A stretch of DNA of 64,000 nucleotides from an uncultured Gammaproteobacteria bacterium (GCA_964633905.1 CAZWIT010000002.1:128833-192832); one strand, 5' to 3'. Numbered from the stretch's first letter, positions 35,314 through 56,660 are shown. A program made the numbers and translations. The notes: generated by a model not told the origin, from the sequence alone.

Positions 35314-37503
35314 ATGAAAATCAATTGGCCACGTTTAAGAAATATTGATGACTTTCTTAATTTAATTATTAAAATTTGTTTAGTTTTAGTATTTATTACT
35401 CCTTTGGTTGCCCCAATTTTTTCTAGGCAACTTGAGAGTTTTAATTATTATTTCCCTTTTATTGTCCCGCGTAATATATACTGGCGTTTTTTGGTAGAAC
35501 TTGCTTTGACTTCTTATTTATTTTTAGCCTTGCATCATAAAATAGCTAAACCACAATTAAATAAGGCTTATACTTTTTTTATTTTATTTGTAATATCTTT
35601 ATTTATTTCTAGTTTGTTAGCTCAAAATTTTGTTTTTAGTTTCTGGAGTAATTATGAGCGTATGGATGGTCTAGTAAATTGGCTACACTTGCTGGCTTAT
35701 GTTTTTGTTTTAGCCGCCTATTTAGGCAAGCATAAAAAGTCATGGCAGTTGTTAATGAAGGTTTCTATTTTGATTGCTGTATTGGTCGCTTTGCATGCTT
35801 TAGGGCAAAGATTAGGTCTAACTTGGTTAATTGCTTCTTCGGGCGGCGCTAGATTAGCTGCTACTTTAGGCAATGCTGCTTATGTTGGCTCTTATTTATT
35901 TTTACATTTAGTAATTTTAAGCTATTTATTTATTTTAAATATTAGATCAGGCAAATTATGGTCCTTAAGTAGCTGGGCTTATTTTTTTAGTGCGATATTA
36001 TTTATTTACGTTTTAGTGGCTACTAATACCAGAGGACCATTTTTGGCTTTAATGTTTTTTGTGTTTTTTATGGCCCTGGCTTATTTGTGGTTTCAGCGTA
36101 AATCACGCCATCGTTTTTATTATGTGGTAGCAGGGCTATTGTGTTTAATGATATTTTTTGTAGCTTTATTATTTATTCAAAAACAGAGTACTTGGGTAAA
36201 AGCAGTGCCTTTGTTTGAAAAGATATCTAGCATATCTTTGAGCGATACTAGCACTCAGTCACGTTTATTGATTTGGGGCGAGAGCTTAAAAGCTTTTAAA
36301 GAAAAACCAATTTTTGGTTGGGGCGAAGAAAATTTTATTTATGCTTTTAATAAATATTTCCCAACTAAGATTTATCATGGCGCTGGTTCAGAAACCTGGT
36401 TTGATCGGCCACATAATATCTTGGTGCAGCATTTAATCCACGGCGGTCTACTGGCAGTTTCTCTTTATTTGGCAATATTTATTTATTTGATTATTCTTTT
36501 ATACAAAGAATATAAAAAAGATCATGATTGGCTAATTAATTTTTTGTGGATTGGCTTTTTGCTTAGTTTCTTGCTACAAGATTTATTTATTTTTGATAAT
36601 TTGAGCGTCAGCGTAGTTTTTTATCTATTATTAGCCTTTTTAATAGCAACTTTGGGTAATGAAGCAGGCGGTTTTTGGTCTAGAACTAGCGCATTATTTA
36701 GCAAAATAAAAATTAGGAGAACTCATTATAAAATTTTGCCTTTTATTTTATTATTTTTATTTCTCTGGTCTTTGCAGGAAATGATCTATAAACCGTTGTT
36801 AAGTAATAAAATTTTAGTTAATACTTTACGTGACTCCTATTTAGCGAGTAGTGCCGATGATTTTACTAAATTACAAGCAGATTGGGAGCGCTCAGTTAAT
36901 TTGACTAGCTTAGGGGACAAGGAAAAAGTCGAAGTTTTATTACAGATGTTTCAAAGTGTTTTAAATAATAAACAGGCCACTGATCAAGATAAGAGAAACT
37001 TTTTTGCCTTATTGGGTAATAATTTTGAAGAAGTAGCTGCAAAATATCCAGATGATATTAGGTTTAATATGATTTTGTCTTCTTTTTATGCTAACTTGAT
37101 GCAAGTAGAGCCAGTTTTTGCTCAAAAAAATGTTGCCCTTTTAGAGCGTTTAGAAGCTTATGCTCCTAAGCGACCAGATATCAAGATGTCTTTAACGGGC
37201 GCTTATTTACAACTTGGTAATTTAGAAGGAGCTAAAAAAGTAGCAATTGCTGCTAAAGATTTGGTGCCAGATGTGAGAGAAGTATATTGGAATTTAGTTT
37301 ATGTTTATGTTCAAGAAAAGAATCTTAGTGAATTAGATATATCTTTAAAGAAGATTATAGTTTTAAATATGCAGATTGAGGGTATTGCTCTGAGCCAAGA
37401 AGATGTGATGAGGTTGAATTATATTTTATCTAGAGTTGATCAGAAAAAAGATCCAGAATTATATAAAGTTTTGAATAATTTTTTACCAGCTAGTCAGGAA
37501 TAA
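35314..37503 (+). CDS. Wzy_C (O-antigen ligase / O-oligosaccharyltransferase PglL-like) polytopic membrane protein with C-terminal TPR-like domain
   Basis: 729 aa with about 12 TM helices. The loop LVATNTRGPFLALM is characteristic of the Wzy_C family. The C-terminal ~220 aa are soluble, helical and TPR-like. Confidence 0.65.
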   Translation: MKINWPRLRNIDDFLNLIIKICLVLVFITPLVAPIFSRQLESFNYYFPFIVPRNIYWRFLVELALTSYLFLALHHKIAKPQLNKAYTFFILFVISLFISSLLAQNFVFSFWSNYERMDGLVNWLHLLAYVFVLAAYLGKHKKSWQLLMKVSILIAVLVALHALGQRLGLTWLIASSGGARLAATLGNAAYVGSYLFLHLVILSYLFILNIRSGKLWSLSSWAYFFSAILFIYVLVATNTRGPFLALMFFVFFMALAYLWFQRKSRHRFYYVVAGLLCLMIFFVALLFIQKQSTWVKAVPLFEKISSISLSDTSTQSRLLIWGESLKAFKEKPIFGWGEENFIYAFNKYFPTKIYHGAGSETWFDRPHNILVQHLIHGGLLAVSLYLAIFIYLIILLYKEYKKDHDWLINFLWIGFLLSFLLQDLFIFDNLSVSVVFYLLLAFLIATLGNEAGGFWSRTSALFSKIKIRRTHYKILPFILLFLFLWSLQEMIYKPLLSNKILVNTLRDSYLASSADDFTKLQADWERSVNLTSLGDKEKVEVLLQMFQSVLNNKQATDQDKRNFFALLGNNFEEVAAKYPDDIRFNMILSSFYANLMQVEPVFAQKNVALLERLEAYAPKRPDIKMSLTGAYLQLGNLEGAKKVAIAAKDLVPDVREVYWNLVYVYVQEKNLSELDISLKKIIVLNMQIEGIALSQEDVMRLNYILSRVDQKKDPELYKVLNNFLPASQE

Positions 37504-37677: not shown

Positions 37678-38820
37678 GTGAAGTTAGTAGAAACTAAAAT
37701 TTATTTAAAATTTATTGTTTGGTTTATTGGTGTGGCTTTGCTGCCCATGGTGCTATTATTGCTATCTTTTTATTTAGCGGGCCAAGATGGGGTTAGCCCA
37801 TTTTTATCTAATTTACCGACTATTATTTGGATTGGAATTTTCTCTTCTTTGGCTTTAGTTTTATTATTGTCACTACTAGCGACTCGTTATTTATCTAGGA
37901 TAATAACTTCACCAGTACAACGTTCGGTTAATGAGCTTTCTCAAGTGGTAGATTTGCTCTTAAAATCTATTCAAAATTTATCTACTATTAGCCAAAGTAA
38001 TAATCAGATTTCTCAAGTTTTAACTATCACCAGCCAACAACAGCAGTTAGGCTTAAAAAATGGTGGCAAGGCTCTAGCTAGTATGGTTTCAGCTTTGAAT
38101 AAGATTAGCCAAAAAACAGAATTAGTTACTAGCGATGCTATTAAGACTGATAAGCTTGCCAAAGAAGGAGCGACTAAATCAAATAAAGCCATAGCTAGTC
38201 TTTCGGCAGTTAGAAATTTATTAACTGAACATCAAAAATTAAGTCAAGCTTTGCAGGCCTATACTAATAAAGTTGTAGATATAGCTAAAAGAGTGGCTGT
38301 GGTAGCAGATACGGCTAGATTTTTTAGCTTAAACATGTCGATTGAGGCTAATAAAACAGCTTTAAGTGAGGATTTTGTTGATTTAGTGGCACAATTACGC
38401 GATTTGAATATGGCTAGCGAAACCGCAGCTAGTAGTATTCAAAATTTATCTGAAGAAATGCGTCGTCATATTGAACAGTCTAAACAGTCGACTATTTTTG
38501 AGTGGCAAGAAACTAATAAAAGTATTGATACTGTAGTACAAACTCTTAATTTTTTTGACAAAATTATCAAAAATGTTGCCCAAATTACGGATAACATCCA
38601 AGTAATTAATCAAGAAAGTTCAAGTACCTATCAAAAGGCTGGCGATATTAATACTATGATCAAAGATTTGACTAAACAATCACAATTACTAGTTAAGCAG
38701 ACAGATGATATTACTAAAGTAATTCAAAATCAATTGGTGGTAACCAGGTCTTTAAATAAATCATCTTTGTCTTTAAATGAAGTTACAGATTCCCTAGATA
38801 ATTTAGTAGGTAGTAAATAA
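37678..38820 (+). CDS. Methyl-accepting chemotaxis protein-like transducer (PilJ-like), GTG start
   Basis: Two N-terminal TM helices with a very short loop, then a coiled-coil signalling region. VAVVADTARFFSLNMSIEANKTA aligns with the conserved MCP signalling-domain core. Confidence 0.6.
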   Translation: MKLVETKIYLKFIVWFIGVALLPMVLLLLSFYLAGQDGVSPFLSNLPTIIWIGIFSSLALVLLLSLLATRYLSRIITSPVQRSVNELSQVVDLLLKSIQNLSTISQSNNQISQVLTITSQQQQLGLKNGGKALASMVSALNKISQKTELVTSDAIKTDKLAKEGATKSNKAIASLSAVRNLLTEHQKLSQALQAYTNKVVDIAKRVAVVADTARFFSLNMSIEANKTALSEDFVDLVAQLRDLNMASETAASSIQNLSEEMRRHIEQSKQSTIFEWQETNKSIDTVVQTLNFFDKIIKNVAQITDNIQVINQESSSTYQKAGDINTMIKDLTKQSQLLVKQTDDITKVIQNQLVVTRSLNKSSLSLNEVTDSLDNLVGSK

Positions 38821-38821
38821 G

Positions 38822-39238
38822 ATGGCAAGTATTGGTAAAAAATACATTTTAATAAAGATTAACGAAGAGCAATGGGCTTGGCCGCTTGAGTCTAGTAGTC
38901 AATTTTTTAACATCGATTATATCTTACCTTTGCCTAAGACAGATAAATATATAGCTGGCCTTGCTTATCAGCATGGGCGTATTTTGACTGTGCTTAGGGC
39001 TGATAAATTAATTGGTCATGCCAAAAGTAATTTAAATATGAAGCAGGCTTTGTGGTTTGACTATCGACAAGATGCTTATGCAATATTAGTTGATGCTGGT
39101 GGCGAAATCATAACTGTTAAAAATTTTTCTAATGATCCACAAAAGAAAATCTTCAAAAAATATTTTAAACATCAAGCCAGTAGAATATATTGTTTAGAGC
39201 CAGAATTAATCATGTCAATATTAAAGATTTATGATTAG
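38822..39238 (+). CDS. CheW-like coupling protein
   Basis: 138 aa. YILIKINEEQWAWPL...YIAGLAYQHGRILTVL matches the CheW-domain pattern. Confidence 0.7.
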   Translation: MASIGKKYILIKINEEQWAWPLESSSQFFNIDYILPLPKTDKYIAGLAYQHGRILTVLRADKLIGHAKSNLNMKQALWFDYRQDAYAILVDAGGEIITVKNFSNDPQKKIFKKYFKHQASRIYCLEPELIMSILKIYD

Positions 39239-40790
39239 TAATAAATATCGAGAATTGTATATTACTAGTACTCAAGAACAGCTCAAAGAGCTAGCTGATT
39301 TATTTTTGTCTTTAGACAAGAATATGCAGAATAAAAATATTTTGGCTGATATTTTCAGATCTTTGCATTCTATGAAGGGCGCGGCCGCTACTATGGCTTA
39401 CAATAAAACGGTTGATTTTATTCATAATTTTGAGAGCATTATTCAGGCAGCGGCTACGGGTAAATTAAGTTTAAATAAAGATTTGTTAGATTTATTTATC
39501 ACTCTAGTTGATCATTTGCAAGATAATTTACATAGTATTAGCAGTCAGGATAAAGAGCGAGATTTTAGACAGGACAATGGCGATTTACAAAAAATTCTAA
39601 AACAACCTAGTGCTAAAATTATTAAGTTAAATAATTTGTCTGTTAAAAAAGAAGAAAATTCTGATCTAGTATCATCCCGACAAATTAGTGATTTGAGTTT
39701 AGCGGTCAGTAGCCTGGATCAGGTTCAAGATACTATGGATGATTTATTAGTTAGTATCATGTCGATTAAGGCACAAGCTTTAAAAAATGGTCAAGTTGAT
39801 CTTTTAGCCAGCGTCTTATCAGCTGATACTTTGGCTAATAATTTAAGAAGGCAGTTAGAACGTTTACGCGTTATTCCTTTAGCTACAGCTTTATCGACTT
39901 TGCCTTATTTAGTGCGATCGGTGGCTAAAGATGAAAATAAAAAAGTAAAGCTAGTTATTGAAGATAATAATTTATCTTTGGATAAATCAATGGTAGACGA
40001 TCTACTGGAAATTATAATTCAACTAGTCAAAAATTCAGTTGTTCATGGTATTAAAACTAAGCAAGCAAACGGTCAGATTAATGTTGTGGTCAATTTAATG
40101 TCAGATCATGTAGTGGTTAAAGTTAGCGATAATGGTCAAGGTATTGATTGGCATAAAGTAAAAATTTTGGCTATCAAAAAAAAGATAGTAAGTAGTAGTC
40201 AAGCAGCAAAACTCTCCGCCTCTCAGATTTTGAATTTATTGTTTCATGTAAATATGTCTAGTCAAAAACATCTAGACATTAATGCGGGCAGGGGAGTTGG
40301 TTTGAGTTTAGTAAAAAGTAAAGTTTTTGATTTAAATGGCACGATTCAGGTGCAGAGCGTAGTGCACAAGGGTACTACTTTTACTATGAAATTTCCTTTG
40401 CCCTTATCAATTTTTAAGAGTTTATCTTTTCAAATTGGTGATTGGGTGCTGGCGATTCCTTTATCACAAGTTGATAAAGTCGTACGTTTGCCAGAATTAA
40501 AAGATCTTTCTAAGGATAAGTTTTTTACTTATCATAAGCAAAGATTAAAATTGGTATCAATTTTAAAAATTTTGCCTTTAGAAAAATTTTCTAGTTTAGC
40601 AAAATATATCTTATATTTAAAAACGGAAGATGTTTTAAAAGCTTTGCCGATTTTCGGTAATTTAAAAGAAAGCGAGTTAGTTATGAAGTCAAGTCCTGCA
40701 ATTTTTCGTCAATTGCCGTATTTACGTGGTGTGGCAGTTTCTTCGGCGGGCAGGCCAGTGTTAATAATAGATGTTAATAAATTGAACTAA
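39231..40790 (+). CDS. CheA-like histidine kinase (ChpA-like)
   Basis: N-terminal HPt (LHSMKGAAATM), HATPase_c (DNGQGID, GRGVGLSLV) and a C-terminal CheW-like domain. Confidence 0.85.
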   Translation: MISNKYRELYITSTQEQLKELADLFLSLDKNMQNKNILADIFRSLHSMKGAAATMAYNKTVDFIHNFESIIQAAATGKLSLNKDLLDLFITLVDHLQDNLHSISSQDKERDFRQDNGDLQKILKQPSAKIIKLNNLSVKKEENSDLVSSRQISDLSLAVSSLDQVQDTMDDLLVSIMSIKAQALKNGQVDLLASVLSADTLANNLRRQLERLRVIPLATALSTLPYLVRSVAKDENKKVKLVIEDNNLSLDKSMVDDLLEIIIQLVKNSVVHGIKTKQANGQINVVVNLMSDHVVVKVSDNGQGIDWHKVKILAIKKKIVSSSQAAKLSASQILNLLFHVNMSSQKHLDINAGRGVGLSLVKSKVFDLNGTIQVQSVVHKGTTFTMKFPLPLSIFKSLSFQIGDWVLAIPLSQVDKVVRLPELKDLSKDKFFTYHKQRLKLVSILKILPLEKFSSLAKYILYLKTEDVLKALPIFGNLKESELVMKSSPAIFRQLPYLRGVAVSSAGRPVLIIDVNKLN

Positions 40791-40791
40791 T

Positions 40792-41211
40792 ATGGAAAAT
40801 AAGTTAGGGAAAATTTTGTTTGTTGATGATGATAATTTTTTACGCAAAGTTTATCAGTCAGAATTAAGTGAGCGTAATTATGAGGTAGTGTTAGCGGCTG
40901 ATGGTTTAGAGGGTTTAGAAAAGGCACAACTCGAAGATCCAGATTTGATTATTTTAGATATGATTATGCCTAAGAAAAATGGTTTCGAAGTCTTGACTGA
41001 ATTACAACGTAACCCCAAGACCCGTAGCATACCAGTGATTATTTTATCTAACTTGGGTCAGGAAGATGATAAAAAGAAAGGCATTGATTTGGGAGCAGTG
41101 GATTATTTAAAAAAGGATAATATGACTTTAGATTTATTGGTGGAAAAAATTAGTCAATATTTGAATTCTAAAACACATAGTAAACAAGCTAAAAATAATC
41201 AAGTAGTTTAA
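40792..41211 (+). CDS. CheY-like single-domain response regulator (PilG/PilH-like)
   Basis: ILFVDDD...DLIILDMIMPKKNG receiver-domain motifs. 139 aa, no output domain. Confidence 0.85.
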   Translation: MENKLGKILFVDDDNFLRKVYQSELSERNYEVVLAADGLEGLEKAQLEDPDLIILDMIMPKKNGFEVLTELQRNPKTRSIPVIILSNLGQEDDKKKGIDLGAVDYLKKDNMTLDLLVEKISQYLNSKTHSKQAKNNQVV

Positions 41212-41222: not shown

Positions 41223-42908
41223 ATGGCGGCTTTATCGGAAGAAAAAATTTATCAAATTATTAGTAAAATCGGTTTAGTAAAACAGGATGTTTTGGACATG
41301 TCCGTCAAGACTGCCCAAGAGAAAAAAATTGATTTAGCAACTTTTTTGATTGAACAGGATTTACTTAAGCCGCAAGAGATTGGTCAGTTGGTTGCTAATA
41401 ATTTACATATTAAATATGCAAATCTGGCTAAAGAAAATATCAAGCCAGAAGTCCTGACACTATTGCCAGAGATTGTGGCGCGTAAGCAAAAAGTAGTTAT
41501 TTTTTCTCGTGATGTTGAGGGTACAAAAGTAGCCATGAGCGATCCTTTTGATTATCCGATGATCAAGGCCTTAGAAAAAAAATTAGGTGATAAAGTAATA
41601 CCATATTATTCTACAGATTATGAAATTACTAATGCTTTTCGACTTTATCGTCAAACTATTCAAAAAGAATATGTTAGTAATATTCAAAAAAATGCTATCA
41701 AAGCCCAGGGTGCTACCAAAGAGGATGTTTCTATTATTCGCTTAGTTGATGATTTATTAAGTTACGGTTTTATTAATCACGCTTCTGATGTTCATATCGA
41801 ACCAACGGAAAAAGAAGTAATAGTACGTTTTAGAATAGATGGCATTTTGTATGATGTTTTGAATTTTCCAAAAAGTATTTTGGAAATGATTGTCACTAGG
41901 ATTAAAATTTTAGCAAAACTTAGGACTGATGAAAGTCGTTCAGCTCAAGATGGTAAAATAATGACAGAAGTCGAAGGGGCACGCGTTGATATTAGGGTTT
42001 CAATTGTGCCTATTGTTAATGGTGAAAAAATAGTAATGCGTCTTTTGTCTTCACAGGGTAAGCAATTTAGTCTTGAAGATTTGGGCATGAGTGAACATGA
42101 TTTAACAATAGTTAATGAAGCAGCAGGTCGTCCTTATGGCATGATACTTTCTACTGGTCCTACTGGTTCTGGTAAAACAACTTCTCTATATGCCTTGATT
42201 AAAATTTTAAATCATAGAGATGTAAATATTTGTACGATTGAAGATCCAGTAGAATATAGTTTAGATGGCGTTAATCAGATCCAAGTCAATCCACAAACCA
42301 ATCTAACTTTTGCGGCTGGCTTACGTTCACTACTGCGTCAAGATCCTGATATTATTATGGTTGGAGAAATTCGTGATAATGAAACAGCTGGTATTGCTAT
42401 TAATGCCGCTATGACTGGGCATTTGGTTTTATCTACTTTGCATACCAATGATGCAGCTACTTCTTTACCACGTTTGATTGATATGCATATCGAGCCTTTT
42501 TTGGTAGCCTCAACTGTAAATATTATTATTGGTCAACGTTTGGTGCGTAAGATTTGTATGAAATGTATTTTTAGTTATACCTTGACGCCCAAAGAGTTAG
42601 AAGATTTGAAAAAAGAAATTAATATTGATAAATATTTGAATACCCAAGCTATACCAGAAGTTAGATTATATAAAGGTAAGGGCTGTGAGCATTGTAATCA
42701 TACTGGTTATGCAGGGCGTATTGGTATTTTTGAAGTTTTGCAAATGCAAGATAATATCAAAGAATTAATTGTGAGTAGATCTGATTCTGATCAAATTGCC
42801 AAACAAGCGCGAGCTAACGGTATGATCACCATGCTTGAAGATGGTTTTATTAAGTCAGTAGCAGGTAAAACTACTATTGAAGAAGTATTTAGAGTAACCA
42901 AACAATAA
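41223..42908 (+). CDS. pilB: Type IV pilus assembly ATPase PilB/GspE family
   Basis: N-terminal T2SE_N domain, Walker A GPTGSGKTT, Asp/His boxes, and a tetracysteine motif (CMKC...CEHC). Confidence 0.9.
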   Translation: MAALSEEKIYQIISKIGLVKQDVLDMSVKTAQEKKIDLATFLIEQDLLKPQEIGQLVANNLHIKYANLAKENIKPEVLTLLPEIVARKQKVVIFSRDVEGTKVAMSDPFDYPMIKALEKKLGDKVIPYYSTDYEITNAFRLYRQTIQKEYVSNIQKNAIKAQGATKEDVSIIRLVDDLLSYGFINHASDVHIEPTEKEVIVRFRIDGILYDVLNFPKSILEMIVTRIKILAKLRTDESRSAQDGKIMTEVEGARVDIRVSIVPIVNGEKIVMRLLSSQGKQFSLEDLGMSEHDLTIVNEAAGRPYGMILSTGPTGSGKTTSLYALIKILNHRDVNICTIEDPVEYSLDGVNQIQVNPQTNLTFAAGLRSLLRQDPDIIMVGEIRDNETAGIAINAAMTGHLVLSTLHTNDAATSLPRLIDMHIEPFLVASTVNIIIGQRLVRKICMKCIFSYTLTPKELEDLKKEINIDKYLNTQAIPEVRLYKGKGCEHCNHTGYAGRIGIFEVLQMQDNIKELIVSRSDSDQIAKQARANGMITMLEDGFIKSVAGKTTIEEVFRVTKQ

Positions 42909-42909: not shown

Positions 42910-44124
42910 ATGATTTTTGTTTATCAGCTCACTGATAATAAAGGTAAAATTACCAAAGGGCGTCTAGAGGCAGCTAATATTGCCGAAGCTCGTAATCGTT
43001 TAGCCTTGCAAGACGGAACGATTGTTTCTTTAGAGCAATTTGTGGCCAAAAAAAGCTCATTAGCCCTATCCAAACAAATGGCCATTGGCAACATGCGCTT
43101 ATTAGATCGGATTATGTTTGCTAAACATTTGGCAGTCATGATTCGTTCTGGTATGTCTATAGATGCAGCTTTTGAAGTGCTAGCTGATAATCCTTCCGCT
43201 TTAGTTGCTAGCAGGATGAAAGGTATTCTAGAAGAAATTAGACGGGGGCACTCTTTAGCTGATGCCTTAAAAAAATATCCCAAAGATTTTGATAATTTAT
43301 TTATCAATATGGTAGCAGTGGGCGAGTCGAGTGGCACTTTATCCAAAAATTTAGAGCTGCTGGCTATGCAACAGCACAAGACTTATGATTTGCGTAATAA
43401 AATTAAAGCAGCTTCTATTTACCCAAGCGTAATTATAGTTGGTGTTATTTTTTTGATAGCTATTGTCTCTAAATTTGTGTTGCCAAGATTAACGGGATTT
43501 TTTACTGCCCTTGGTACTGATTTGCCTTTGTCGACTAAGATTATGATGGCGGTGGCTGGTTTTTTTGTAAATAGTTGGGGAATAGTAGTTGGAATTATTG
43601 CTTTAATTTTTGTGGGCATTATTATTATGTCTCGTTATTATGTAACCCGCCTTTGGTTGCATTATACTTTACTTAAAATACCATTGGTCGGTAAAATCAA
43701 TAGCCACGTTAATTTAGCTTTGTTTTGCCGGACTACGGCTTCACTTTTGACTAGCGGTATACCGATTGATCAGGCTCTTAATATAGTTAGTAATACTTTG
43801 ACCAACACTGTTTATAGGGAGCAGGTGGTTATTGTTTATCATAGTGTCTTAAAAGGAAATTCTTTAGCTGATGCTATGGCTAATAAAAAATATTTTCCAA
43901 CTATGTTACACCGTATGACTAAGGTAGGAGAAAATTCAGGAAACTTGAGTGAAGTTCTAAATTATTTAGCAGAGTTTTATGAGGAAGATGTTGATAATGC
44001 AACTAAGAACTTTTCCAATGTTTTAGAGCCGGCCCTATTGGTGGCCATTGGTTTAACAGTTGGTTTTGCGGCTATTTCTATTATTCAACCAATATTCAAA
44101 TTAATCAGCGTTACTGGAGCTTAA
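42910..44124 (+). CDS. pilC: Type IV pilus inner-membrane platform protein PilC/GspF family
   Basis: Two T2SSF repeats and 3 TM segments. Directly follows pilB. Confidence 0.85.
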   Translation: MIFVYQLTDNKGKITKGRLEAANIAEARNRLALQDGTIVSLEQFVAKKSSLALSKQMAIGNMRLLDRIMFAKHLAVMIRSGMSIDAAFEVLADNPSALVASRMKGILEEIRRGHSLADALKKYPKDFDNLFINMVAVGESSGTLSKNLELLAMQQHKTYDLRNKIKAASIYPSVIIVGVIFLIAIVSKFVLPRLTGFFTALGTDLPLSTKIMMAVAGFFVNSWGIVVGIIALIFVGIIIMSRYYVTRLWLHYTLLKIPLVGKINSHVNLALFCRTTASLLTSGIPIDQALNIVSNTLTNTVYREQVVIVYHSVLKGNSLADAMANKKYFPTMLHRMTKVGENSGNLSEVLNYLAEFYEEDVDNATKNFSNVLEPALLVAIGLTVGFAAISIIQPIFKLISVTGA

Positions 44125-44156: not shown

Positions 44157-45272
44157 GTGAGCAGTATTTTAAAAACAATAAAAAATTTAAAACATAATAA
44201 TTTTAATATTTCTCTAAAGGGTTTTACTTTGGTAGAAATTTTAATAGTAGTTTCAGTATTAATTGTGATTTCTGCTTCGGGCGTGGCGATTTTTTCTAGC
44301 CGTACTACCCAAGTTAGTCTAGATGCTAGCTCTAAAGAAGTGATAGAGATAATTTCCCAAGCACGTAATTATGCTGTTACTGGTTATTTTGGCGATGCTT
44401 GGGGTATTAGAATTTTAGACGATAGTAGTGCTTGCGTTGATAGTGGTGATTGCGTGGTGATGTTTAAGGGTGAGTCATACTTGAGCCGTGACATTGCCTA
44501 TGATCGTAGCGTTCAGCTTGATAAGGGGGTTTATATTGATGCTAGTTCTGCCAATGAGTTTTATTTTAAACCAGTAGCTGGCTGGCTAAGTACTACTACT
44601 GGCGCTTTGGCTCAGCAGCAACTTACTTTAAAAAGTAATGATGGTGATAGTGAAACCATTGCTATTGCCGCTAGTGGTATTTCTTATTATTTTTATTGTG
44701 GCATTGATGAAGTTTTTGATATAGATGGTAAATCTTATGAAACTATTCAGATCGGTGATCAATGTTGGATGAAAGAAAATTTAAATACAGGAGTCATGTT
44801 AGCTAGCGCTGCTACTAATCCTAGTGATAATGATATAGTTGAAAAATGGTGTAATGCTGATTCGGAGGCAAATTGTGCTAGTACAGGTGGTCTCTACAGT
44901 TGGGATGAATTAATGGGTTATATGATGTTGGGTTCATCTTGGCAAAATAGGGGGATTTGTCCTTATGGTTGGCATGTACCAACAGAAGCTGAGCTTGATA
45001 TTTTGACTTCAGCTTATCCGCCAGCTTCCAATGGTACAGCTTTAAAAATCGGTGGTATTTCTGGATTTGATTTGTTGCCAGCTAATGAAATGAACACTGA
45101 TACCAATACTTATGATGATGCAGATTTGAGCGTTTTGTGGACTTCTAGTGAAAATATTGCTTTTACTAGCGAGGCTTATATTCAATACGTAGATACGCCA
45201 AGTGCCAGCATGAATAAAACTACCAATGATAAGGATTGGGGATTTTCAGTAAGGTGTTTACAGAATGATTAA
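44157..45272 (+). CDS. Prepilin-type (class III signal peptide) protein fused to a Fibrobacter-succinogenes-major-paralogous (FISUMP, TIGR02145-like) domain
   Basis: Leader ...SLKG|FTLVEILIVV (Glu at +5). The C-terminal ~170 aa match the FISUMP pattern (DIDGKSYETIQIGDQCWMKENL...GICPYGWHVPTEAELDIL...GFSVRCLQND). Confidence 0.7.
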   Translation: MSSILKTIKNLKHNNFNISLKGFTLVEILIVVSVLIVISASGVAIFSSRTTQVSLDASSKEVIEIISQARNYAVTGYFGDAWGIRILDDSSACVDSGDCVVMFKGESYLSRDIAYDRSVQLDKGVYIDASSANEFYFKPVAGWLSTTTGALAQQQLTLKSNDGDSETIAIAASGISYYFYCGIDEVFDIDGKSYETIQIGDQCWMKENLNTGVMLASAATNPSDNDIVEKWCNADSEANCASTGGLYSWDELMGYMMLGSSWQNRGICPYGWHVPTEAELDILTSAYPPASNGTALKIGGISGFDLLPANEMNTDTNTYDDADLSVLWTSSENIAFTSEAYIQYVDTPSASMNKTTNDKDWGFSVRCLQND

Positions 45273-45293: not shown

Positions 45294-48200
45294 TTGATTT
45301 TAGGGTATATGTTTAATAAAAAATCACATTATAAAATTAAAAAAAGAGGCAATGGTTTTTCTTTGGTGGAATTAGTAGTGGCTCTTGGGATTTTTGCTAT
45401 TGTATCTAGTGGTGTGATTTTTGTGGTGATTAATTCTTATCGTACTTATTATGGATCAGGTGACAGGCAGGTAGTAGTCCAATTTGCTCAAGAAGGCTTA
45501 GAAGCTGTCAAAAGTATCCGTGATAATAGTTGGCAGGGTATAGTAGCAGTCGCTGATGATAATGATCATGGAGTAATTAAAGTTAATGGCTTATGGCAGT
45601 TTAGTGGCACTAATAATACTTTAGGTGCTTTAACTAGGACCATTGTGATTAGTAATGTTAGTCGTGATGCTAGTGGTAATATCGATGCTGGTGTTACTTA
45701 TGATCCTAATACTAAAAAAGTAATAGTGACAGTTTCGGGATCTGGTATTTCTAATTATGTTTTAGTTAGCTTTATTACGAATTGGTCTCATCGTTATTGG
45801 GAGCAGACTGATTGGTCAGGAGTTGGTACTAGTGAATTTTGGAACAGTGCACTTAAAGCTTCCTCATCCTATTCTAATATTAGTACTGCTACACCCGGTG
45901 CTTTGACTTTGGCCTTATCGGCTGGTGGTACGCCTGGTAGCTATGGCGATTGGGGCGATGTTTATCCTTTGGCCACTACCACTTATTTTACTAATCAAAT
46001 TCACGGCATGGCTTTATCACCTGATCAAAGAACTTTGTATACCACTGGCAATGATACGGCTCAAAGTTTTAGGGCTTATGATGTTTCTCAAGCAAGAGCT
46101 GGTATTATCAAAGAATTATGGAGTATAAAATATAATACTGACGTGCTTTTGGTTAACGCAGCTACAGTAACAGTGCATCCTAATGGACGCTATGTTTATG
46201 TTGGTTGTTATGCTGCTACCGGTGTTACTGGTAGGTTAATTTTAATTATAGATACAGTGACTAGGCAGTATACGTTTTCTACTGGTGGTACGGCCGGCAG
46301 TTCAACTATGTATATAAATGATATTGTGGTTGATGCGGACTCCAATTATTTATATGCCTTGGGTCGTAATTTTAGAATTTTTCCTTTTCAAATTACTAAT
46401 GATGGAGCTACGCTAACTTTAGTGGGGAATAGTGCTGGCCAAATTATGGCAGGTGGCGCTCTTAATCGAGGTGTGATAGCAAATGGTTGGTTATATATAG
46501 TAACTTCAGATGGTCCTAAATCATTTCAAAAAATAAATATTTCTAATCCAGCTGCTTTGACTACCACAACTGGTGGCGGCTATGTTTTTGCTAACCCCAA
46601 TGGAGCTAGGCCTAGATATAATCTTAAATATATAGAAACAGTGGCTGATCAGCCTCGTTTTCTGGTGACTAATTATTCTGGTTCGTATGAGGTAGAAATT
46701 ATAGAAGATGATGGGACGTCAGCTACTACTATTGGTAATTTAGGTTTAACTAATAGTCTTTATTTTGATATAGCTGATGGTGGTTTAGATGCTAGAACTT
46801 ATTGGCTGTATAATTATTATGGTGATTTACAAGAAATATATATCAATACGAGTGGCGTGCCGACTATTACTGGATCAGTTTGCAATGGCCGAGCTTGTAA
46901 GTATGGAAATTATTATCAGGATGTAGTTAGTAGTAGTAGTTTTTGGGCTGATAATATGGTTTACAGTAGCGTTTTAGGTGGTTTGATATTATTAGAATAT
47001 CAAGGTGCGACACCAGCTACTTATAATATGTACTTTGTTCCTAAAACTGAAACCAGGGCTAACGGCGCTACTTATTCTTATCGGCGGGCAATTACAATTG
47101 ATCATACTAAAGTATCTACTGAAGATCAAAGTTCTTTTCCAGTGCTCATTTCTGGAACCTATAGTTATTTAAAAACAACTGCTAATGGTGGTAATACCCA
47201 GAGTGATTATGGTTATGATATTATTTTTACCTCAGATATTGACGGCAATACGATACTTGATCATGAGATCGAAAGCTATTCTTCTAGTACGGGGGCTTTA
47301 ACTGCTTGGGTCAGAATTCCGACGCTATCATATACTGCGGACACTACTATTTATATGTTTTATGGGAATAACACCATTAGCACTTCACAAGAGAGAGCAA
47401 ATAGTGTTTGGGATGGTAATTTTAAGTTTGTTAGTCACATGGCTGGCAATGGTACGGACTCGGTGCGTAATGATTCTACTTCCGATAATAATTCTTTTTA
47501 TAAGTATTCAGGTGACCCTAGTACTTTTGATGTAGCGGTTTCAGCGAGTTCTGATGATGCCCAAGAGTTAGTTTCTAATGGCACTGTTACTACCAATGCA
47601 GATCCTTTGCATATGTCTTATAACGGTGGCACTTATTATACTGGTTTACGTTTTCAAAATGTGCAAGTGCCACAGGGATCTACAATTATTAATGCTTATT
47701 TAGAATTTCAAGCAGGTACACAATCAGGGGTTAATGGTGATGCTATTAATAATGTTATAGCCGCTGAAGCTACAGATGACGCAGCTACTTTTGCCGCTAC
47801 TAACTATAATATTTCCTCAAGATCAACCACTACTAGTTTTGTGACTTGGAGTTGGGCAGCAGCTTGGACAGCTGGCACTCTTTATCGTACTAATGATATT
47901 AGTCCAGTTATTAGAGAAGTTATTAACCGGCCTGGTTGGGTTAGCGGCAATGACATGGCTTTTAGGATAGCGCCTGATCCAACACAAACTTCTAAAAAGG
48001 TTGCAAAATCATATGACAATGCTACTTGGACCAGTACCACTAGTCCGCGTTTATATATTAATTATGCTTCTAGTACTAGTGGTCAAATAAATAGTGGTGA
48101 TTATTTTGATAACTATGGAGATAAACTATATGCTTTTGCTAATTATAAATCATTATGGCAAAACACTTCTGATTTTACTGCTGAATTTTGGGTTAAATAT

Positions 48201-48992
48201 GCTGGTGGCATGTCAGCATCTAATTACGCTTGCATTTTATATAAAGGCAACGGTGATGCTGGTGTGCAAGAAGGTTGGTATATCCGTTTTTTGGGTAGCA
48301 CCTCTAAATTAACTTTTCATGCTGGTAACAGCGGAAAAAATTTACAAGGCGTAACCATGACCAATGCCTTAAGCGCTGGTACTTGGACTCATATTGCCAT
48401 GGTAGTAGATCGAGATGTTGGTTATCAGTGGTATCGTAATGGTGTTGCAGAAGCAAGCTATGCTACCGACACTAGCGCTTATACGCTGGGAACTTCCACG
48501 TCCTTAGGTATTAGTTGGGATTGGTCGCCTAGTGATCCTAGTATGTCTTTTCTTGGTAATATAGATGAGATTAGAATCTCTCATACCAAGAGATCAACGT
48601 CTTGGTTAGTAACTTCTTATAATTCCCAAAATGATCCTAGTAGTTTTTATAGTATTAGTGATGCAACTACGGTAGCTGGTTATGCGAGTCCGGGTGTTTT
48701 ATATTCTTCTATTATTGATTTGGGAGCAAGCGATCAAACTCTTGCCAGCATTAGTGTTGAACAGGACGTACCAAGTGGTTGTAGTATTGTTGTTACCTTA
48801 GAAGCTTCTGATCTTAGTAGTTTTTCCTCTCTTACTAGCGCTGATTTTAGCGATAGTGCCAATTTTTTTACTAGCAGTACGCCTAGTAGTTTAGATAATA
48901 AGCGCTATTTACGTTATAAAACAACTTTAACTAATTGTAATAGTGGTTCTTCTGCTCCAAGCTTATATTCATTACGTTTAAATTATCGATAA
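45294..48992 (+). CDS. Giant prepilin-type protein (1232 aa) with a C-terminal concanavalin-A-like/LamG lectin domain
   Basis: N-terminus ...KKRGNG|FSLVELVVALGIFAIV. A LamG_3-like domain lies near the C-terminus (FTAEFWVKY...WTHIAMVVDRD...LGNIDEIRISHTKRSTSW). The true start may be the downstream Met (MFNKK...). Confidence 0.7.
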   Translation: MILGYMFNKKSHYKIKKRGNGFSLVELVVALGIFAIVSSGVIFVVINSYRTYYGSGDRQVVVQFAQEGLEAVKSIRDNSWQGIVAVADDNDHGVIKVNGLWQFSGTNNTLGALTRTIVISNVSRDASGNIDAGVTYDPNTKKVIVTVSGSGISNYVLVSFITNWSHRYWEQTDWSGVGTSEFWNSALKASSSYSNISTATPGALTLALSAGGTPGSYGDWGDVYPLATTTYFTNQIHGMALSPDQRTLYTTGNDTAQSFRAYDVSQARAGIIKELWSIKYNTDVLLVNAATVTVHPNGRYVYVGCYAATGVTGRLILIIDTVTRQYTFSTGGTAGSSTMYINDIVVDADSNYLYALGRNFRIFPFQITNDGATLTLVGNSAGQIMAGGALNRGVIANGWLYIVTSDGPKSFQKINISNPAALTTTTGGGYVFANPNGARPRYNLKYIETVADQPRFLVTNYSGSYEVEIIEDDGTSATTIGNLGLTNSLYFDIADGGLDARTYWLYNYYGDLQEIYINTSGVPTITGSVCNGRACKYGNYYQDVVSSSSFWADNMVYSSVLGGLILLEYQGATPATYNMYFVPKTETRANGATYSYRRAITIDHTKVSTEDQSSFPVLISGTYSYLKTTANGGNTQSDYGYDIIFTSDIDGNTILDHEIESYSSSTGALTAWVRIPTLSYTADTTIYMFYGNNTISTSQERANSVWDGNFKFVSHMAGNGTDSVRNDSTSDNNSFYKYSGDPSTFDVAVSASSDDAQELVSNGTVTTNADPLHMSYNGGTYYTGLRFQNVQVPQGSTIINAYLEFQAGTQSGVNGDAINNVIAAEATDDAATFAATNYNISSRSTTTSFVTWSWAAAWTAGTLYRTNDISPVIREVINRPGWVSGNDMAFRIAPDPTQTSKKVAKSYDNATWTSTTSPRLYINYASSTSGQINSGDYFDNYGDKLYAFANYKSLWQNTSDFTAEFWVKYAGGMSASNYACILYKGNGDAGVQEGWYIRFLGSTSKLTFHAGNSGKNLQGVTMTNALSAGTWTHIAMVVDRDVGYQWYRNGVAEASYATDTSAYTLGTSTSLGISWDWSPSDPSMSFLGNIDEIRISHTKRSTSWLVTSYNSQNDPSSFYSISDATTVAGYASPGVLYSSIIDLGASDQTLASISVEQDVPSGCSIVVTLEASDLSSFSSLTSADFSDSANFFTSSTPSSLDNKRYLRYKTTLTNCNSGSSAPSLYSLRLNYR

Positions 48993-50269
48993 TGACAAAA
49001 AAAATAAAACAAAAATCAGGTTTTACCTTACTTGAAACTATTATTTATTTAGCGATTGTTGGCATTTTACTTTCTGCTATTATTGATTTTAGTATTACTT
49101 TGGGAAATTCTTCTAGTAAAATGTCAGCCAACATTGATGCTTCTCGTAATCGCCGAGCGGCTTTAAGTAGTATTAATTATTTAGTGCGCAATGCTGATGG
49201 TCTATGGAAAGATGTTTATAATGATTGTTCAAATTTTAGCTCTAGTCCCCAAATTTTAGCTTTATATTTTAATAATGATGATTATCTGCCTGGTCCTTGC
49301 GTTGAAGATGGTGGGGGAGTAAAAATTAGTATTGATGAAGGTCGCCTAAAAATGACTTGTTACCCTAACGCTGGCTATAATAGTTCTTATAATACTTGTG
49401 CTAGTAGTGCTGGTAATTTTTATTGGTTAAGCGGGCAAGAAGTTTCTATTGCCAATAGTGCTTTAACTTTTTCTACTTCAACCGCTACTTCAACAGCCAA
49501 TGGTTTTACTAGCGTTACTACTTATCTCAATGTTTCTACTATTAGTAATCAGCAAACAAGCCTAAAGGCAAATTCAGCAGCGACCAGTACAGTGGCTATC
49601 CGTAATGAACAGCCGAATGGTTTAATTGCTTTTTATAAATTTGACGATGGTTCTAGCAATGCGGCTGTTGATAGTGTGGATGGCACAAGTTTGAGCTGCG
49701 CTTTAAACCCACCCAGCTCAGTGAGTAATTTAGTAGCAGGTAGTGCTAAGGCTTTTGATTTTAATAGCTCAGAATCAGATTATTGTTCGATCGATAATCC
49801 AGAAAAATTTAATTTAGGGCAGTCTTTTACTATTTCTACTTGGATAAAAATGGATAGCCCAACTGTAGCCGAACATGCTATTATTAATAAGCATGACTGG
49901 TCGGCAAGTCAGGGTTATTATTTGATGGTTTATCAAAATACTGGTCGGGTAATATTTAGAATTTGTGATGGCACAGCTTGTTCTAATATTTTAGATGTTG
50001 ATAGTATTTTAAGTAATGCAACTGTCTATAATATCACGGTGGTATATGATCAACCCAATAGTTTAGGTAAAATGTATATTTATCAGGCTGGGGTTGGCGG
50101 AGTGAGTACTACTACAGCTGCTTCTTGGCCTATTTTAGTTAACTCCAATCAAACTAATTATCCTCGGATCGGTAATAATTTAGATGGTACTTTGGATGAT
50201 TTGCGCATCTATAATAGAGCCTTAACAGAAACAGAAGTTTGGGCTTTGCAAAGTCAGGGTGCTAATTAA
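48992..50269 (+). CDS. Prepilin-type protein with LamG/concanavalin-A-like lectin domain
   Basis: N-terminus MTKKIKQKSG|FTLLETIIYLAIV. LamG_3-like domain (FTISTWIKM...GTLDDLRIYNRALTETEVWAL). Confidence 0.75.
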   Translation: MTKKIKQKSGFTLLETIIYLAIVGILLSAIIDFSITLGNSSSKMSANIDASRNRRAALSSINYLVRNADGLWKDVYNDCSNFSSSPQILALYFNNDDYLPGPCVEDGGGVKISIDEGRLKMTCYPNAGYNSSYNTCASSAGNFYWLSGQEVSIANSALTFSTSTATSTANGFTSVTTYLNVSTISNQQTSLKANSAATSTVAIRNEQPNGLIAFYKFDDGSSNAAVDSVDGTSLSCALNPPSSVSNLVAGSAKAFDFNSSESDYCSIDNPEKFNLGQSFTISTWIKMDSPTVAEHAIINKHDWSASQGYYLMVYQNTGRVIFRICDGTACSNILDVDSILSNATVYNITVVYDQPNSLGKMYIYQAGVGGVSTTTAASWPILVNSNQTNYPRIGNNLDGTLDDLRIYNRALTETEVWALQSQGAN

Positions 50270-50277: not shown

Positions 50278-51225
50278 ATGCAATATATTAGAAGTTATAA
50301 AAATTTATCACAACCACAAGGTTTTATTGCTTTGATTTTAGTGATTATGGTTACAGCCATAATTTTAGTATCCAATGTGATCATTAGCATGGTTAATACT
50401 TCTAATAATTTAGCTAATTATCACATGGCTGAGTCAGAGGAAGTGTCTTATAATATCGAGGCTTGTTTAGATGATGCTTATTGGCGTATCACTTCTAGCA
50501 CTAGTGTTAGCGGTTCTTTTGGTATTACTAGTGGTGATGTAGATTGTGATTATGAAATTAGTGCCACTGATAGTGGACTTAAAATTGTCACTTCTACAGC
50601 TACTACTACCTCAGCTTTGGGTAATTGGCACCGGCAAGTAATAGCACAAATCAATGTTTCTACTACCCCTATTACTATTAGTTATTATAAAGACGGTATT
50701 AATATTATGCATGTTAATACCTCAGAAGGTCCAAATTCGCCAACTGTAGCTAGTGATTCTGGTACAGGTGGTCAAACGTGGAGCGGTGGCACTTTAAATA
50801 ATATTTTTTCTGATAATAGTACTGAAGCAGAAAATACTGCTACCTGCGGCGAAACACTTTGCAGTGATTATGAAATAAAATTAATTAAAGCAGATAATAG
50901 TCTATCCTCGCAAAATAAAGCCTTAGTAGTAGCTCTTGGTACAACAGCTGATCCGGGCTACACGAGCTACGGTGGTAGTGGCCAACTTTGGGGAGAATCT
51001 TGGACGGCTAGCGATATTAATAATGCTAATTTTGGCTTAGCTATCAAATATAATGGCGATAGTCAAAGCTCTTATTTAAAAGCTAGCGGGTTTAATTTTA
51101 ATATACCAAATGGAGCAGTAATTACTGGTATTGAAGCTAACGTTGAGCATTGGCTTGAATATTTTTTTGATCATTATGAAATTCATGTTGATCATGTTAC
51201 AATAACAATTTATTATCGCATATAA
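50278..51225 (+). CDS. Pilin-like/minor pseudopilin candidate (noncanonical prepilin motif)
   Basis: N-terminus ...SQPQG|FIALILVIMVTAIIL has the hydrophobic helix but no Glu at +5. It sits among the pilin genes. Confidence 0.4.
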   Translation: MQYIRSYKNLSQPQGFIALILVIMVTAIILVSNVIISMVNTSNNLANYHMAESEEVSYNIEACLDDAYWRITSSTSVSGSFGITSGDVDCDYEISATDSGLKIVTSTATTTSALGNWHRQVIAQINVSTTPITISYYKDGINIMHVNTSEGPNSPTVASDSGTGGQTWSGGTLNNIFSDNSTEAENTATCGETLCSDYEIKLIKADNSLSSQNKALVVALGTTADPGYTSYGGSGQLWGESWTASDINNANFGLAIKYNGDSQSSYLKASGFNFNIPNGAVITGIEANVEHWLEYFFDHYEIHVDHVTITIYYRI

Positions 51226-51239: not shown

Positions 51240-53006
51240 ATGGCTAAAGACATTATTGGGATTGATATTTCCGATGCCTCAATTGAGGCAATAGTATTAA
51301 ATAAAAAGGGTGGTAATTTTATAGTAGATACTTACTCGCGTTTTCGCTTGTCTCCGGAAATCATAGTAGATGGTAAAATTATTAAACCAGACAAGTTAAA
51401 AGAAGCCTTACAGCTAGTTTTTAAAAGCGCTCAACCGCGCCTTATGGATCCAGGTAGAGTATATTTATCAGTTTCAGAAAGCCGAGCTTTTACTAAAGTT
51501 TTTAATTTTCCTAAAAATTTAAATGATAAGGAATTAAAAGAAGCTGCTATTCATAAGGCAGAGGAGATGATACCAGAGGACATGGCACAATTGTTTAGTG
51601 CTAGTCAGTTACTGCCAAATAAAAATGAACACAAAGAAGTTTTGTATGTAACCGCTGAAAAAGAGGCGGTTTTAGCTTTGACTAAAATATTTCAAGAACA
51701 AAATATAGAAGTTCTCGGTGTTACCACCGAGTCATTTAGTGCTTACTGGGGCTTAAATGAAAAATTTAAAAAAAATCAAACTTTATTATTAGATATTGGT
51801 AGTCATACCACGATTGCAGCTATTTATGATAGTTATAGTGTGCGTGATAGTATTAATATTAATATTGCCGGTTTTAATATTATTGAGGCTATGATCAAAA
51901 GATTTAATATTGACTATTTAAAGGCTGAAGAATTGATTAGGGATGTGGGTTTAACGGCGGAGCCTGGTGATGGTGAAGTAATGCTTTTGATACAGGGACA
52001 ACTACAGCCATTACTTGATGAAGTTAATCGTTTTGTAAATTATTTTCAAGAATCAAATCAGGGACATTTAGAGCAAGTAGTTTTAATTGGTGGCTTGGCG
52101 CAAATGCGCGGTATTGTAAATTATTTTGGCTCTAATCTAAATTTACCTACTTTTATCGGGGAAACTTTTTTATCTAATAGTAATTCAGAGGCAGTTGCTT
52201 TTACTAAATATATTAATGCCCTAGGTCTGGCTAGGCTTTGTTTTGAGAAAAATAATATTAATTTTTTTGATAGTATTGATAAAAAAACTTTAAAACAAGA
52301 ATTAATTAAAGATGAAAAATTAATAGCGCCTAATCCAGATGCAGAAGCAATCGAAACACCGATCGCACCACTTGGTTTAGCAAAATACAAATTATTATTC
52401 AAGAAGATTTTTGGCAGTTTATTTTTTGCATTATTTTTAATGTTGATAGGCTTAGGTGGTTCATTTATTTTTTTGCGAAAACCTTTGCAAAATTTATTTG
52501 TTAGAGAAACTAGCTTTAGTATTAATTCAGAAAAAATTAGTGTTGGTCTAAAATCTCCAGGAGGAGCGAATCAGCGCTTTGTCTATGGTCAAAATGCCTC
52601 TTTTGTTTTAAATCAAGAAAAAGACTATCCGGCCCTTTCCTATGAAGAGGTAAAAGATAAGCTGGTGGCGAATTTATCAGAAGAAGTGATAAATGAATTA
52701 AATAAAAAATATCAACAGAGCGGCTACTACATTATTCCTCAGATTATTGGTAAACAAATTATCGATATTAGTCCTAAGCAAGTAGATTTTAAAATTGGTC
52801 AGCCTGTCAAAGTGCAAGTGAGTTTTTCTTTTATAGCAATCTCCAATAATGATGTTAAACAAGTTTTAGGGCGTATTGCCAAAGCTGAAGAGCAGGCTAA
52901 AATTTTAAGTAGTGAGGTAGAACAGGCAGAATACAAACTTATTTCTTGGGATAGTGCTAATCAATCGTTTGTCTTAGAGGTTAATTTTAAGTTTAAAACT
53001 AAATAA
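51240..53006 (+). CDS. pilM: PilM-like actin-fold ATPase fused to a PilN-like bitopic domain
   Basis: N-terminus IIGIDISDASIEAIVL plus the LLDIGSHTT phosphate-binding motif (FtsA/PilM family). A TM helix (about residues 390-412) is followed by an extracytoplasmic domain. Confidence 0.65.
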   Translation: MAKDIIGIDISDASIEAIVLNKKGGNFIVDTYSRFRLSPEIIVDGKIIKPDKLKEALQLVFKSAQPRLMDPGRVYLSVSESRAFTKVFNFPKNLNDKELKEAAIHKAEEMIPEDMAQLFSASQLLPNKNEHKEVLYVTAEKEAVLALTKIFQEQNIEVLGVTTESFSAYWGLNEKFKKNQTLLLDIGSHTTIAAIYDSYSVRDSININIAGFNIIEAMIKRFNIDYLKAEELIRDVGLTAEPGDGEVMLLIQGQLQPLLDEVNRFVNYFQESNQGHLEQVVLIGGLAQMRGIVNYFGSNLNLPTFIGETFLSNSNSEAVAFTKYINALGLARLCFEKNNINFFDSIDKKTLKQELIKDEKLIAPNPDAEAIETPIAPLGLAKYKLLFKKIFGSLFFALFLMLIGLGGSFIFLRKPLQNLFVRETSFSINSEKISVGLKSPGGANQRFVYGQNASFVLNQEKDYPALSYEEVKDKLVANLSEEVINELNKKYQQSGYYIIPQIIGKQIIDISPKQVDFKIGQPVKVQVSFSFIAISNNDVKQVLGRIAKAEEQAKILSSEVEQAEYKLISWDSANQSFVLEVNFKFKTK

Positions 53007-54218: not shown

Positions 54219-54230
54219 ATAGAGTGCTAA
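54204..54230. promoter_or_regulatory. Perfect CIRCE operator (TTAGCACTC-N9-GAGTGCTAA) overlapping the -10 box
   Basis: Exact match to the HrcA-binding CIRCE consensus. The spacer tataatata contains the -10 hexamer. Confidence 0.8.
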
Positions 54231-54277
54231 TGTGTTATTTAGCTTATTTTTTTAATGTATTAAATTTAATAATTTTT

Positions 54278-55948: not shown

Positions 55949-55950
55949 AA

Positions 55951-56658: not shown

Positions 56659-56660
56659 AT

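Follow-up and report, generated by a model that had tools for sequence, protein, structure and literature searches.

What does a FISUMP (Fibrobacter succinogenes major paralogous) domain do when it follows a prepilin signal, and on which structure is it displayed? The question is raised by an open reading frame (ORF) at positions 44157..45272 (+) of a 64,000-nucleotide stretch of DNA (GCA_964633905.1, CAZWIT010000002.1:128833-192832), which at its full length is called the window below. The initial annotation had read the product as a pilin N-terminus fused to a FISUMP domain, with a ligand-binding role, possibly for glycans, at the pilus surface or tip. The results described here make it probable that the product is a minor pilin built of two modules, which carries a FISUMP binding head in the tip region of a type IV pilus, and that the organism is one of the Patescibacteria (Parcubacteria type). 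By analogy with characterized relatives of the two modules, the protein is most likely a pilus-tip-region adhesin module.

A prepilin signal, a pilin module and a FISUMP head in one protein

The ORF extends from a GTG start to a TAA stop codon and encodes 371 aa. GTG is the sole canonical start codon upstream of the predicted cleavage site, and the closest homologue (P0001, 89 per cent identical) has the same N-terminus, MSSILKTIKNLK. The annotated coordinates proved exact, and all strings quoted for the protein were found in the translation: KG|FTLVEILIVV at aa 21-32, DIDGKSYETIQIGDQCWMKENL at aa 188-209, CPYGWHVPTEAELDIL at aa 268-283 and GFSVRCLQND as the C-terminus. The pilin module has two cysteines and the head six, eight in all.

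That the C-terminal half (aa 181-371; 44697..45269 (+)) is a FISUMP domain is beyond doubt. TIGR02145 matched aa 190-370 over model positions 7-176 of 176 (E 3e-28, 99.7 bits, cut-off 41.65), and PF09603 (Fib_succ_major) matched aa 197-368 over positions 1-186 of 187 (E 5.6e-20, 72.8 bits, gathering score 33.9). Both scores are well over the curated cut-offs, in agreement with the family assignment of the initial annotation; in addition, Lcl_C/DUF1566 gave a weak secondary match in the C-terminal half. The domain begins after the last pilin beta-strand with essentially no linker. Across 23 pilin-FISUMP fusions the head cysteines at positions 181, 203, 232, 268 and 367 are invariant and Cys240 is nearly so, which suggests extracellular disulfides. 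The lipoprotein signal that is usual in the FISUMP family, without being defining, is absent from the protein, which has the prepilin signal instead; a crude lipobox pattern matched 12 of the 120 FISUMP relatives listed by a search of 5.8 billion proteins. The description of FISUMP as a domain of unknown function holds only in part, as the family has already been grouped with DUF1566/Lcl_C as a C-type-lectin-fold ligand-binding scaffold (PMC5758913).

At the other end of the protein, a leader of 22 aa (44157..44222 (+)) containing four lysines and ending in Gly22 precedes the prepilin site K21-G22|F23-T-L-V-E27 (GFTLVE motif, aa 22-27) and about 20 hydrophobic residues, ILIVVSVLIVISASGVAIF. 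All features of a class III signal are present: the basic leader, Gly at -1, Phe at +1, Glu at +5 and the hydrophobic stretch. The residues G(-1), F(+1) and E(+5) are kept in 15 of the 15 full-length orthologues (one orthologue has A in place of G, and one has D in place of E), and the leader is the least conserved part of these proteins (entropy 1.78). A family profile built from the 23 fusions and searched against solved structures matched the alpha1N segment of filament-derived pilins, among them Geobacter PilA-N (E 6e-10), PAK pilin, Thermus PilA4, GspG and others. In this alignment, position 15 of the profile fell on mature residue 1 of the solved full-length pilins, which places the cut directly after the glycine; removal of the leader by a prepilin peptidase is predicted. 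Motif conservation, profile alignment and predicted fold are thus all in agreement with the class III (prepilin) signal originally proposed.

An AlphaFold2 model built on the alignment of 120 sequences (pLDDT 90.5, pTM 0.77) consists of an alpha1 helix of 50 residues (aa 25-75), a beta-sheet domain (aa 82-179) and a mixed alpha/beta domain (aa 185-370). The first two make up the lollipop fold of pilins, a long alpha1 helix on an antiparallel beta-sheet, and the fold predicted for the pilin module, including its characteristic globular domain, matches that of FimU and GspH. According to the model, a whole minor pilin module of FimU/GspH type (aa 23-180; 44223..44696 (+)), with cysteines at positions 93 and 99, serves as the carrier, and a carrier of this type would place the head in the tip-proximal priming complex. 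The prepilin N-terminus of the initial annotation is therefore present, but the helix is not the whole carrier. A structure prediction had been proposed as a check on whether the head is a discrete unit, and in the model it appears as a separate domain of C-type-lectin fold following the pilin module.

Operon position, relatives and the optional head

Four prepilin-like genes, of which this is the first, lie between pilB-pilC, directly upstream, and pilM with two major pilin genes. The annotated fusion of a prepilin signal with a genuine FISUMP domain therefore lies inside a type IV pilus operon. The same order of minor-pilin genes was found in four related loci (L001, L002, L004 and L006), and synteny with an upstream chemosensory module was kept in three of them (L001, L002 and L004). 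In the fimU-pilVWX and gspHIJK clusters the FimU/GspH gene comes first; the first-of-four slot thus matches the FimU/GspH position and agrees with the assignment made from the fold. The other three minor-pilin genes may be allotted to the I, J and K slots by order only.

A prepilin motif was present in 23 of the 120 listed FISUMP relatives. Fifteen are full-length orthologues of 352-374 aa (43-89 per cent identical to the protein studied here). In a second fusion class, with at least eight members, the FISUMP domain is joined to major-pilin-like modules (GFTLIELLVVIAIIGILA...), whose globular part is not homologous to that of the FimU/GspH-type carrier. The operon slot of an orthologue was examined at one locus, that of P0004 (51 per cent identical), where the order is methyl-accepting chemotaxis protein (MCP)-CheW-CheA-CheY-PilB-PilC-[FISUMP pilin]-[1033-aa DUF2341 pilin]-[444-aa LamG pilin]-[289 aa]-PilM-pilins. 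A search for the same fusion in other Patescibacteria had been suggested; it does recur there, with P0004 in the same operon slot. P0029, a member of the second class, is a stand-alone gene outside any pilus operon. NCBI and JGI annotate the relatives as prepilin-type or as FISUMP (TIGR02145), and some distant JGI fusions bear both labels. Source names were available for two homologues, P0004 (Candidatus Parcubacteria) and P0015 (Patescibacteria group), so that the organism most likely belongs to the Patescibacteria and is of Parcubacteria type. The window has a G+C content of 33.9 per cent and also contains a ribosomal-protein operon, secY, adk and map.

Outside pilins, FISUMP domains are numerous. 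A profile of the fusion alignment, searched against a library of 1.84 billion representative proteins, retrieved 169,393 representatives at E<=1e-3 and 13,722 at E<=1e-30, and the best 150 matches were giant proteins with 3-12 FISUMP copies and lengths of up to 7786 aa. The domain was also found on two phage proteins. Taking into account the large non-pilin carriers, the multi-copy proteins and the phage proteins, FISUMP appears to be a promiscuous surface head module. [quoted passage not shown] Ten of these loci (five CPR-labelled, five others) were inspected at the ORF level, and a pilin fusion was found in one of them (L066).

Some observations made in these loci are recorded here for their own sake. 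In other CPR genomes FISUMP stands at the start or the end of giant non-pilin ORFs, such as one of at least 2451 aa in Peribacteria (L007, 5821..13173) and one of 1791 aa in Magasanikiibacteriota (L014, 1255..6627); the latter protein has an N-terminal hydrophobic segment that could be a pseudopilin-like anchor lacking the Glu. The metagenome-assembled genome GCA_964570655.1 contains two stand-alone pilin-FISUMP genes of the second class (L003, CAZMYU010000020.1, and L066, CAZMYU010000015.1), and its label 'uncultured Gammaproteobacteria' seems doubtful given the CPR-like gene content.

When aa 1-182 were used alone as query, pilins without a head were found. They are 159-177 aa long, 47-70 per cent identical to the pilin module, and stop at the last beta-strand (GLVYYG[DNEQ]-stop, as against GISYYFYCG- in the protein with the head). 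In L004 and L006 the head-less gene stands in the very same place, with pilC on one side and the DUF2341/LamG pilin gene on the other, which suggests that the head is dispensable for assembly and acts as an accessory graft. A neighbour-joining tree of the pilin module (200 bootstraps) grouped the query clade with one head-less clade in 98.5 per cent of the bootstraps, and monophyly of all head-less sequences was obtained in 1.5 per cent. These groupings indicate that the head was lost at least twice, or lost and regained. Two of the head-less proteins, P0017 and P0018, have an in-frame N-terminal extension with a second, degenerate prepilin-like motif (GFTQLEKLI and GFTRLEKLI, respectively), which may stem from a wrongly called start or from a short duplicated segment.

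The most variable part of the mature protein lies within the head. Among the 16 orthologous sequences aa 301-360 (45057..45236 (+), directly ahead of the conserved GFSVRCL motif) had the highest entropy, with a mean of 1.67 compared with 1.02 for the head core. P0002 was 96, 82 and 80 per cent identical to the protein over aa 23-100, 101-180 and 181-250, and 45 and 40 per cent identical over aa 251-300 and 301-360. Over aa 251-360 the far more distant P0003 and P0004 are closer to the protein (55-62 per cent) than P0002 is. The comparison indicates that the distal half of the head was either exchanged in the manner of a cassette or has diverged very fast. A variable and mosaic C-terminal part is what would be expected of a specificity surface, and the patch at aa 301-360 putatively has this role.

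Proposed function and its alternatives

The following sequence of events would account for these features. The precursor would insert in the membrane by its hydrophobic alpha1N segment, and a prepilin peptidase encoded elsewhere would cut it after Gly22 and methylate Phe23, as the motif suggests. The FimU/GspH-type module (aa 23-180) would then join the three other minor pilins in a priming complex on the PilC/PilM platform, and PilB-driven polymerisation of the two major pilins would push this complex outward, so that it would come to lie at the pilus tip. For minor pilins of the type II secretion system (T2SS) and of type IVa pili, the position of GspH/FimU under the cap is established. By analogy, the protein would be located just under a GspK/I/J-like cap, linking it to the major pilin. 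The FISUMP head, a disulfide-stabilised C-type-lectin fold devoid of calcium motifs, would project from the tip region and bind a ligand on a partner cell, a host cell or a surface, with the LamG modules of the two neighbouring minor pilins acting alongside it. Its specificity would be set by the variable C-terminal half, approximately aa 251-360.

Solved relatives of the head fold act in binding. The C-domain of Legionella Lcl binds glycosaminoglycans and Lcl is an adhesin (PMC11162425), and Bd2740 of Bdellovibrio is the C-type-lectin-fold tip of a prey-recognition fibre, with no calcium site (PMC10769870). Both solved relatives being adhesins, an adhesin role for the head gains support. Binding of glycans is plausible by the same analogy; glycan and protein ligands are both possible, since relatives of this fold bind proteins (Mtd) as well as glycans (Lcl).

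Several observations weigh against this assignment. Foldseek against the PDB gave nothing significant, and sequence searches of the PDB detected no FISUMP structure. The EPN/QPD and WND motifs, by which C-type lectins bind calcium and sugar, are absent from the head; a canonical Ca2+-dependent C-type lectin domain was rejected on this ground, and glycan binding cannot be read from the sequence. On the pilin side, the Pfam N_methyl model PF07963 scored 17.5 bits, under its gathering score of 21.2, so that of the two models proposed initially for a hmmscan search TIGR02145 was above its cut-off and N_methyl was not; TIGR02532 (IV_pilin_GFxxxE) also gave no match at E<=0.01. Precomputed PF07963 matches are present on several orthologues, however, and taken together with the match of the family profile to alpha1N they indicate that the motif is there and that this protein is sub-threshold. 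The GspH model TIGR01708 matched aa 21-89 only (E 1.6e-4, 21.7 bits, cut-off 80), and PF12019 did not match at E<=0.01; with the sequence models of the GspH family so far under their cut-offs, the FimU/GspH assignment rests on fold and gene order. The window yielded no gene for a prepilin peptidase (A24) and none for a retraction ATPase (PilT). One would not expect a GspH-like subunit at the very tip, and the head may accordingly be sub-apical. Finally, the mosaic signal comes from a single metagenomic contig of 5.4 kb (P0002), which could be chimeric.

A more far-reaching version of the adhesin assignment is possible, although we regard it as doubtful: the FISUMP head on the FimU-slot pilin would be the host-range determinant of a Parcubacteria-type epibiont, and partners would be switched by loss and regain of the head and by recombinational exchange of its C-terminal half, with no diversity-generating retroelement (DGR) involved. 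The pattern of presence and absence of the head and the mosaic P0002 mildly favour this version. If it were true, the pilus tip would carry three lectins (FISUMP and two LamG modules), and GspH/FimU, normally seen as a passive adaptor, would have been turned into an adhesin.

The best surviving of the alternatives, itself unlikely, retains the lectin and removes the long pilus. The protein would be a membrane-anchored lectin or a pseudopilus subunit, its alpha1N segment holding the head on the cell surface or on a short pseudopilus like that of the T2SS. The content of the operon speaks against this: PilM, two 167-aa major pilins of the abundant type and a Pil-Chp-like module are typical of true pili, and no secretin was found in the window. 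Moreover, similar loci give rise to real type IV pili in cultivated Patescibacteria (PMC11623550).

The variability of the head could also have been generated by a DGR, if the C-terminal part of the head were a variable repeat rewritten by a reverse transcriptase from a template repeat. The Fib_succ_major/DUF1566 family belongs to the C-type-lectin-type class of DGR targets described by Wu et al. in 2017 (CLec2, category d; PMC5758913), a later survey counted 43 FISUMP targets (PMC11661182), and the most variable part of the protein is indeed the C-terminal region of the head, where aa 301-360 would correspond to the site of the variable repeats in CLec2 proteins (PMC5758913). Neither of the other components was found in the window. 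It has no second copy of the 3' region of the gene, and the only repeat touching the gene is a 40-nt match of 73 per cent, at the level of chance. A Pfam scan revealed no reverse-transcriptase domain in the larger ORFs from about 11.4 kb onward; the ORFs at 1-11.4 kb, which were read as translations only, look ribosomal or housekeeping. In addition, the orthologues diverge over many residue types, and between genomes rather than within a population. With no template repeat or reverse transcriptase in the window, the DGR explanation was rejected as very improbable.

It is just as improbable that the protein is a FimT/ComGD-like DNA receptor of a competence pilus, with an incidental head. FimT has a C-terminal DNA-binding motif of the GRxR type. 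Inspection of the translation showed no motif of this type, and the dipeptide GR occurs nowhere in the protein; the head-less homologues terminate in GLVYYG[DNEQ], and the match to FimT was far weaker than those to FimU and GspH. This candidate was rejected for lack of the C-terminal motif. Least probable of all is an enzyme on the pilus, with an FGE-like or sulfoxide-synthase-like catalytic head, since the head has about 190 aa compared with about 270-290 aa for FGE domains (aligned identities 8-16 per cent), belongs to the FISUMP/Lcl_C family and not to FGE-sulfatase (no PF03781 match at E<=0.01), and has binders (Lcl, Bd2740, Mtd, TvpA) as its closest characterized small fold members; 1y4j, an FGE paralogue, is itself catalytically inactive.

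Known systems and neighbouring genes

Modular pilins are a documented group, and so is this architecture. The entry IPR011871, listed without a name in the survey of Raynaud et al., is presumably the InterPro entry for FISUMP (TIGR02145/PF09603). The minor pilin described here has the same domain architecture, prepilin motif plus FISUMP, as part of the modular pilins of that survey. There, an InterPro search placed IPR012902-IPR011871 fifth among the commonest of 264 modular-pilin architectures, with 40 proteins, a representative in Candidatus Wolfebacteria and an extra domain described as 'of no clear function' (Raynaud et al. 2021, PMC8179133, Dataset S1); a further, multi-domain example was listed as well. 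The fusion is thus not new, the architecture having been catalogued in 2021 (PMC8179133), and no new kind of system is described here. The survey counted the architecture only, unlike the present analysis, which deals also with carrier type, operon position, fold and the pattern of presence and absence. The FimU/GspH carrier, the conserved operon slot, the zero-linker boundary, the natural head-less alleles and the mosaic variable half are refinements added here. A literature search found no paper on the function of a pilin-FISUMP fusion.

The modular pilins PilB (vWA) and PilC (concanavalin-A-like lectin) of Streptococcus sanguinis act as tip adhesins (PMC8179133), and they resemble the protein in having a C-terminal binding module grafted on a small pilin. 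The PilC lectin and the modules of the two neighbouring minor pilins fall into one superfamily, of LamG type. The protein differs from PilB and PilC in its C-type-lectin/FISUMP head, its FimU/GspH carrier and its unrelated organism. FimU of Pseudomonas aeruginosa and GspH/EpsH of the T2SS are head-less, single-module proteins of about 140-170 aa, unlike the bimodular protein; their true equivalents are the head-less homologues P0121-P0128. Within the Patescibacteria, the Saccharibacteria (TM7x) have type IV pilus minor pilins with C-terminal lectin-like domains, PilX1 and PilX2, for which host binding was proposed or shown (PMC11623550). They belong to a different class of Patescibacteria, are named after PilX and are not of FimU type, and their heads are of the beta-jelly-roll L-type-lectin-like and the beta-propeller type. 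Heads of C-type-lectin fold were compared in Legionella Lcl (8q4e), the Bdellovibrio MAT fibre tip Bd2740 (8oks) and the DGR proteins TvpA, TaqVP and Mtd; in contrast to a pilin, their carriers are a collagen-like stalk, a trimeric fibre, a lipoprotein and a phage tail fibre. Several of these relatives are trimeric, whereas a head borne on a pilin would presumably be a monomer.

Patescibacteria are believed to depend on attachment to other microbes for their way of life, and type IV pili belong to the small number of organelles encoded by nearly all of them that could serve for attachment. To our knowledge, host-recognising molecules are known only for one cultivated Saccharibacterium. For an uncultivated lineage, the gene provides a clear candidate, of high confidence, for a recognition module borne on a pilus, and it indicates that a putatively functional head can be carried at the GspH/FimU position of the minor-pilin complex. 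The boundary at aa 180/181, the head-less controls in sister lineages and the defined variable patch make it a practical target for expression and binding studies.

Upstream of the gene, the pilB-like assembly ATPase is encoded at 41223..42908 (+) (T2SSE 427 bits, MshEN, TIGR02538) and the pilC-like platform protein at 42910..44124 (+) (T2SSF 197.5 bits, TIGR02120). They are preceded by genes for MCP-like, CheW, CheA-like and CheY-like proteins, as identified by Pfam (37678..41211 (+)), a Pil-Chp-like set of chemosensory genes within a reduced genome. The next gene upstream encodes a 729-aa protein with Wzy_C (O-antigen-ligase/PglL-PilO-type) and TPR (35314..37503 (+)); the syntenic locus L004 has a Wzy_C protein upstream as well. 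The major pilins contain a Thr-rich stretch, HPTTTPTPT, and in view of this the Wzy_C protein may be a pilin O-glycosyltransferase.

Downstream of the gene, two modular minor-pilin-like genes follow: one of 1232 aa at 45294..48992 (+) (DUF2341 and LamG; GFSLVE) and one of 425 aa at 48992..50269 (+) (LamG; GFTLLE), the latter with an extra weak match to the TafC family (E 5e-8). The Pfam matches of the minor-pilin-like genes downstream were to N_methyl, DUF2341 and Laminin_G_3. As both are modular, the tip complex may carry three lectin-like modules. The fourth prepilin-like gene, GspK/PilX-like, encodes 315 aa (50278..51225 (+)) and has a prepilin-like site, QG|FIALIL, without Glu5, which is the hallmark of cap subunits of the GspK/PilX type. 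Its product (N-terminus QG|FIALILVIMV) has no Pfam match, and homologues of 289-310 aa, also without a Pfam match, fill its slot in L001, L004 and L006. The pilM-like gene (51240..53006 (+); PilM_2 97.7 bits) encodes 588 aa, and the product, which has a hydrophobic stretch around aa 440-465 and is considerably extended at its C-terminus, may be a PilM-PilN(-PilO)-like fusion. The tandem major-pilin genes, of 167 aa each (53122..53625 and 53656..54159 (+); N_methyl 31-32 bits), are 83 per cent identical in the nucleotide sequence of their 5' parts (repeat D1), and related loci have two or three major-pilin copies.

Elsewhere in the window, a 1283-aa ORF at 18379..22230 (+) begins like a signal peptide and matched nothing in Pfam at E<=0.1, and the 455-aa protein encoded after it gave faint Ig-like matches only. 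Directly after the pilin genes, 54224..59142 (+) encodes an HlyD-type membrane-fusion protein, an ABC ATPase and two MacB/FtsX permeases; a membrane-fusion protein gene downstream of the pilins is also present in L004 and in the JGI contig with P0004.

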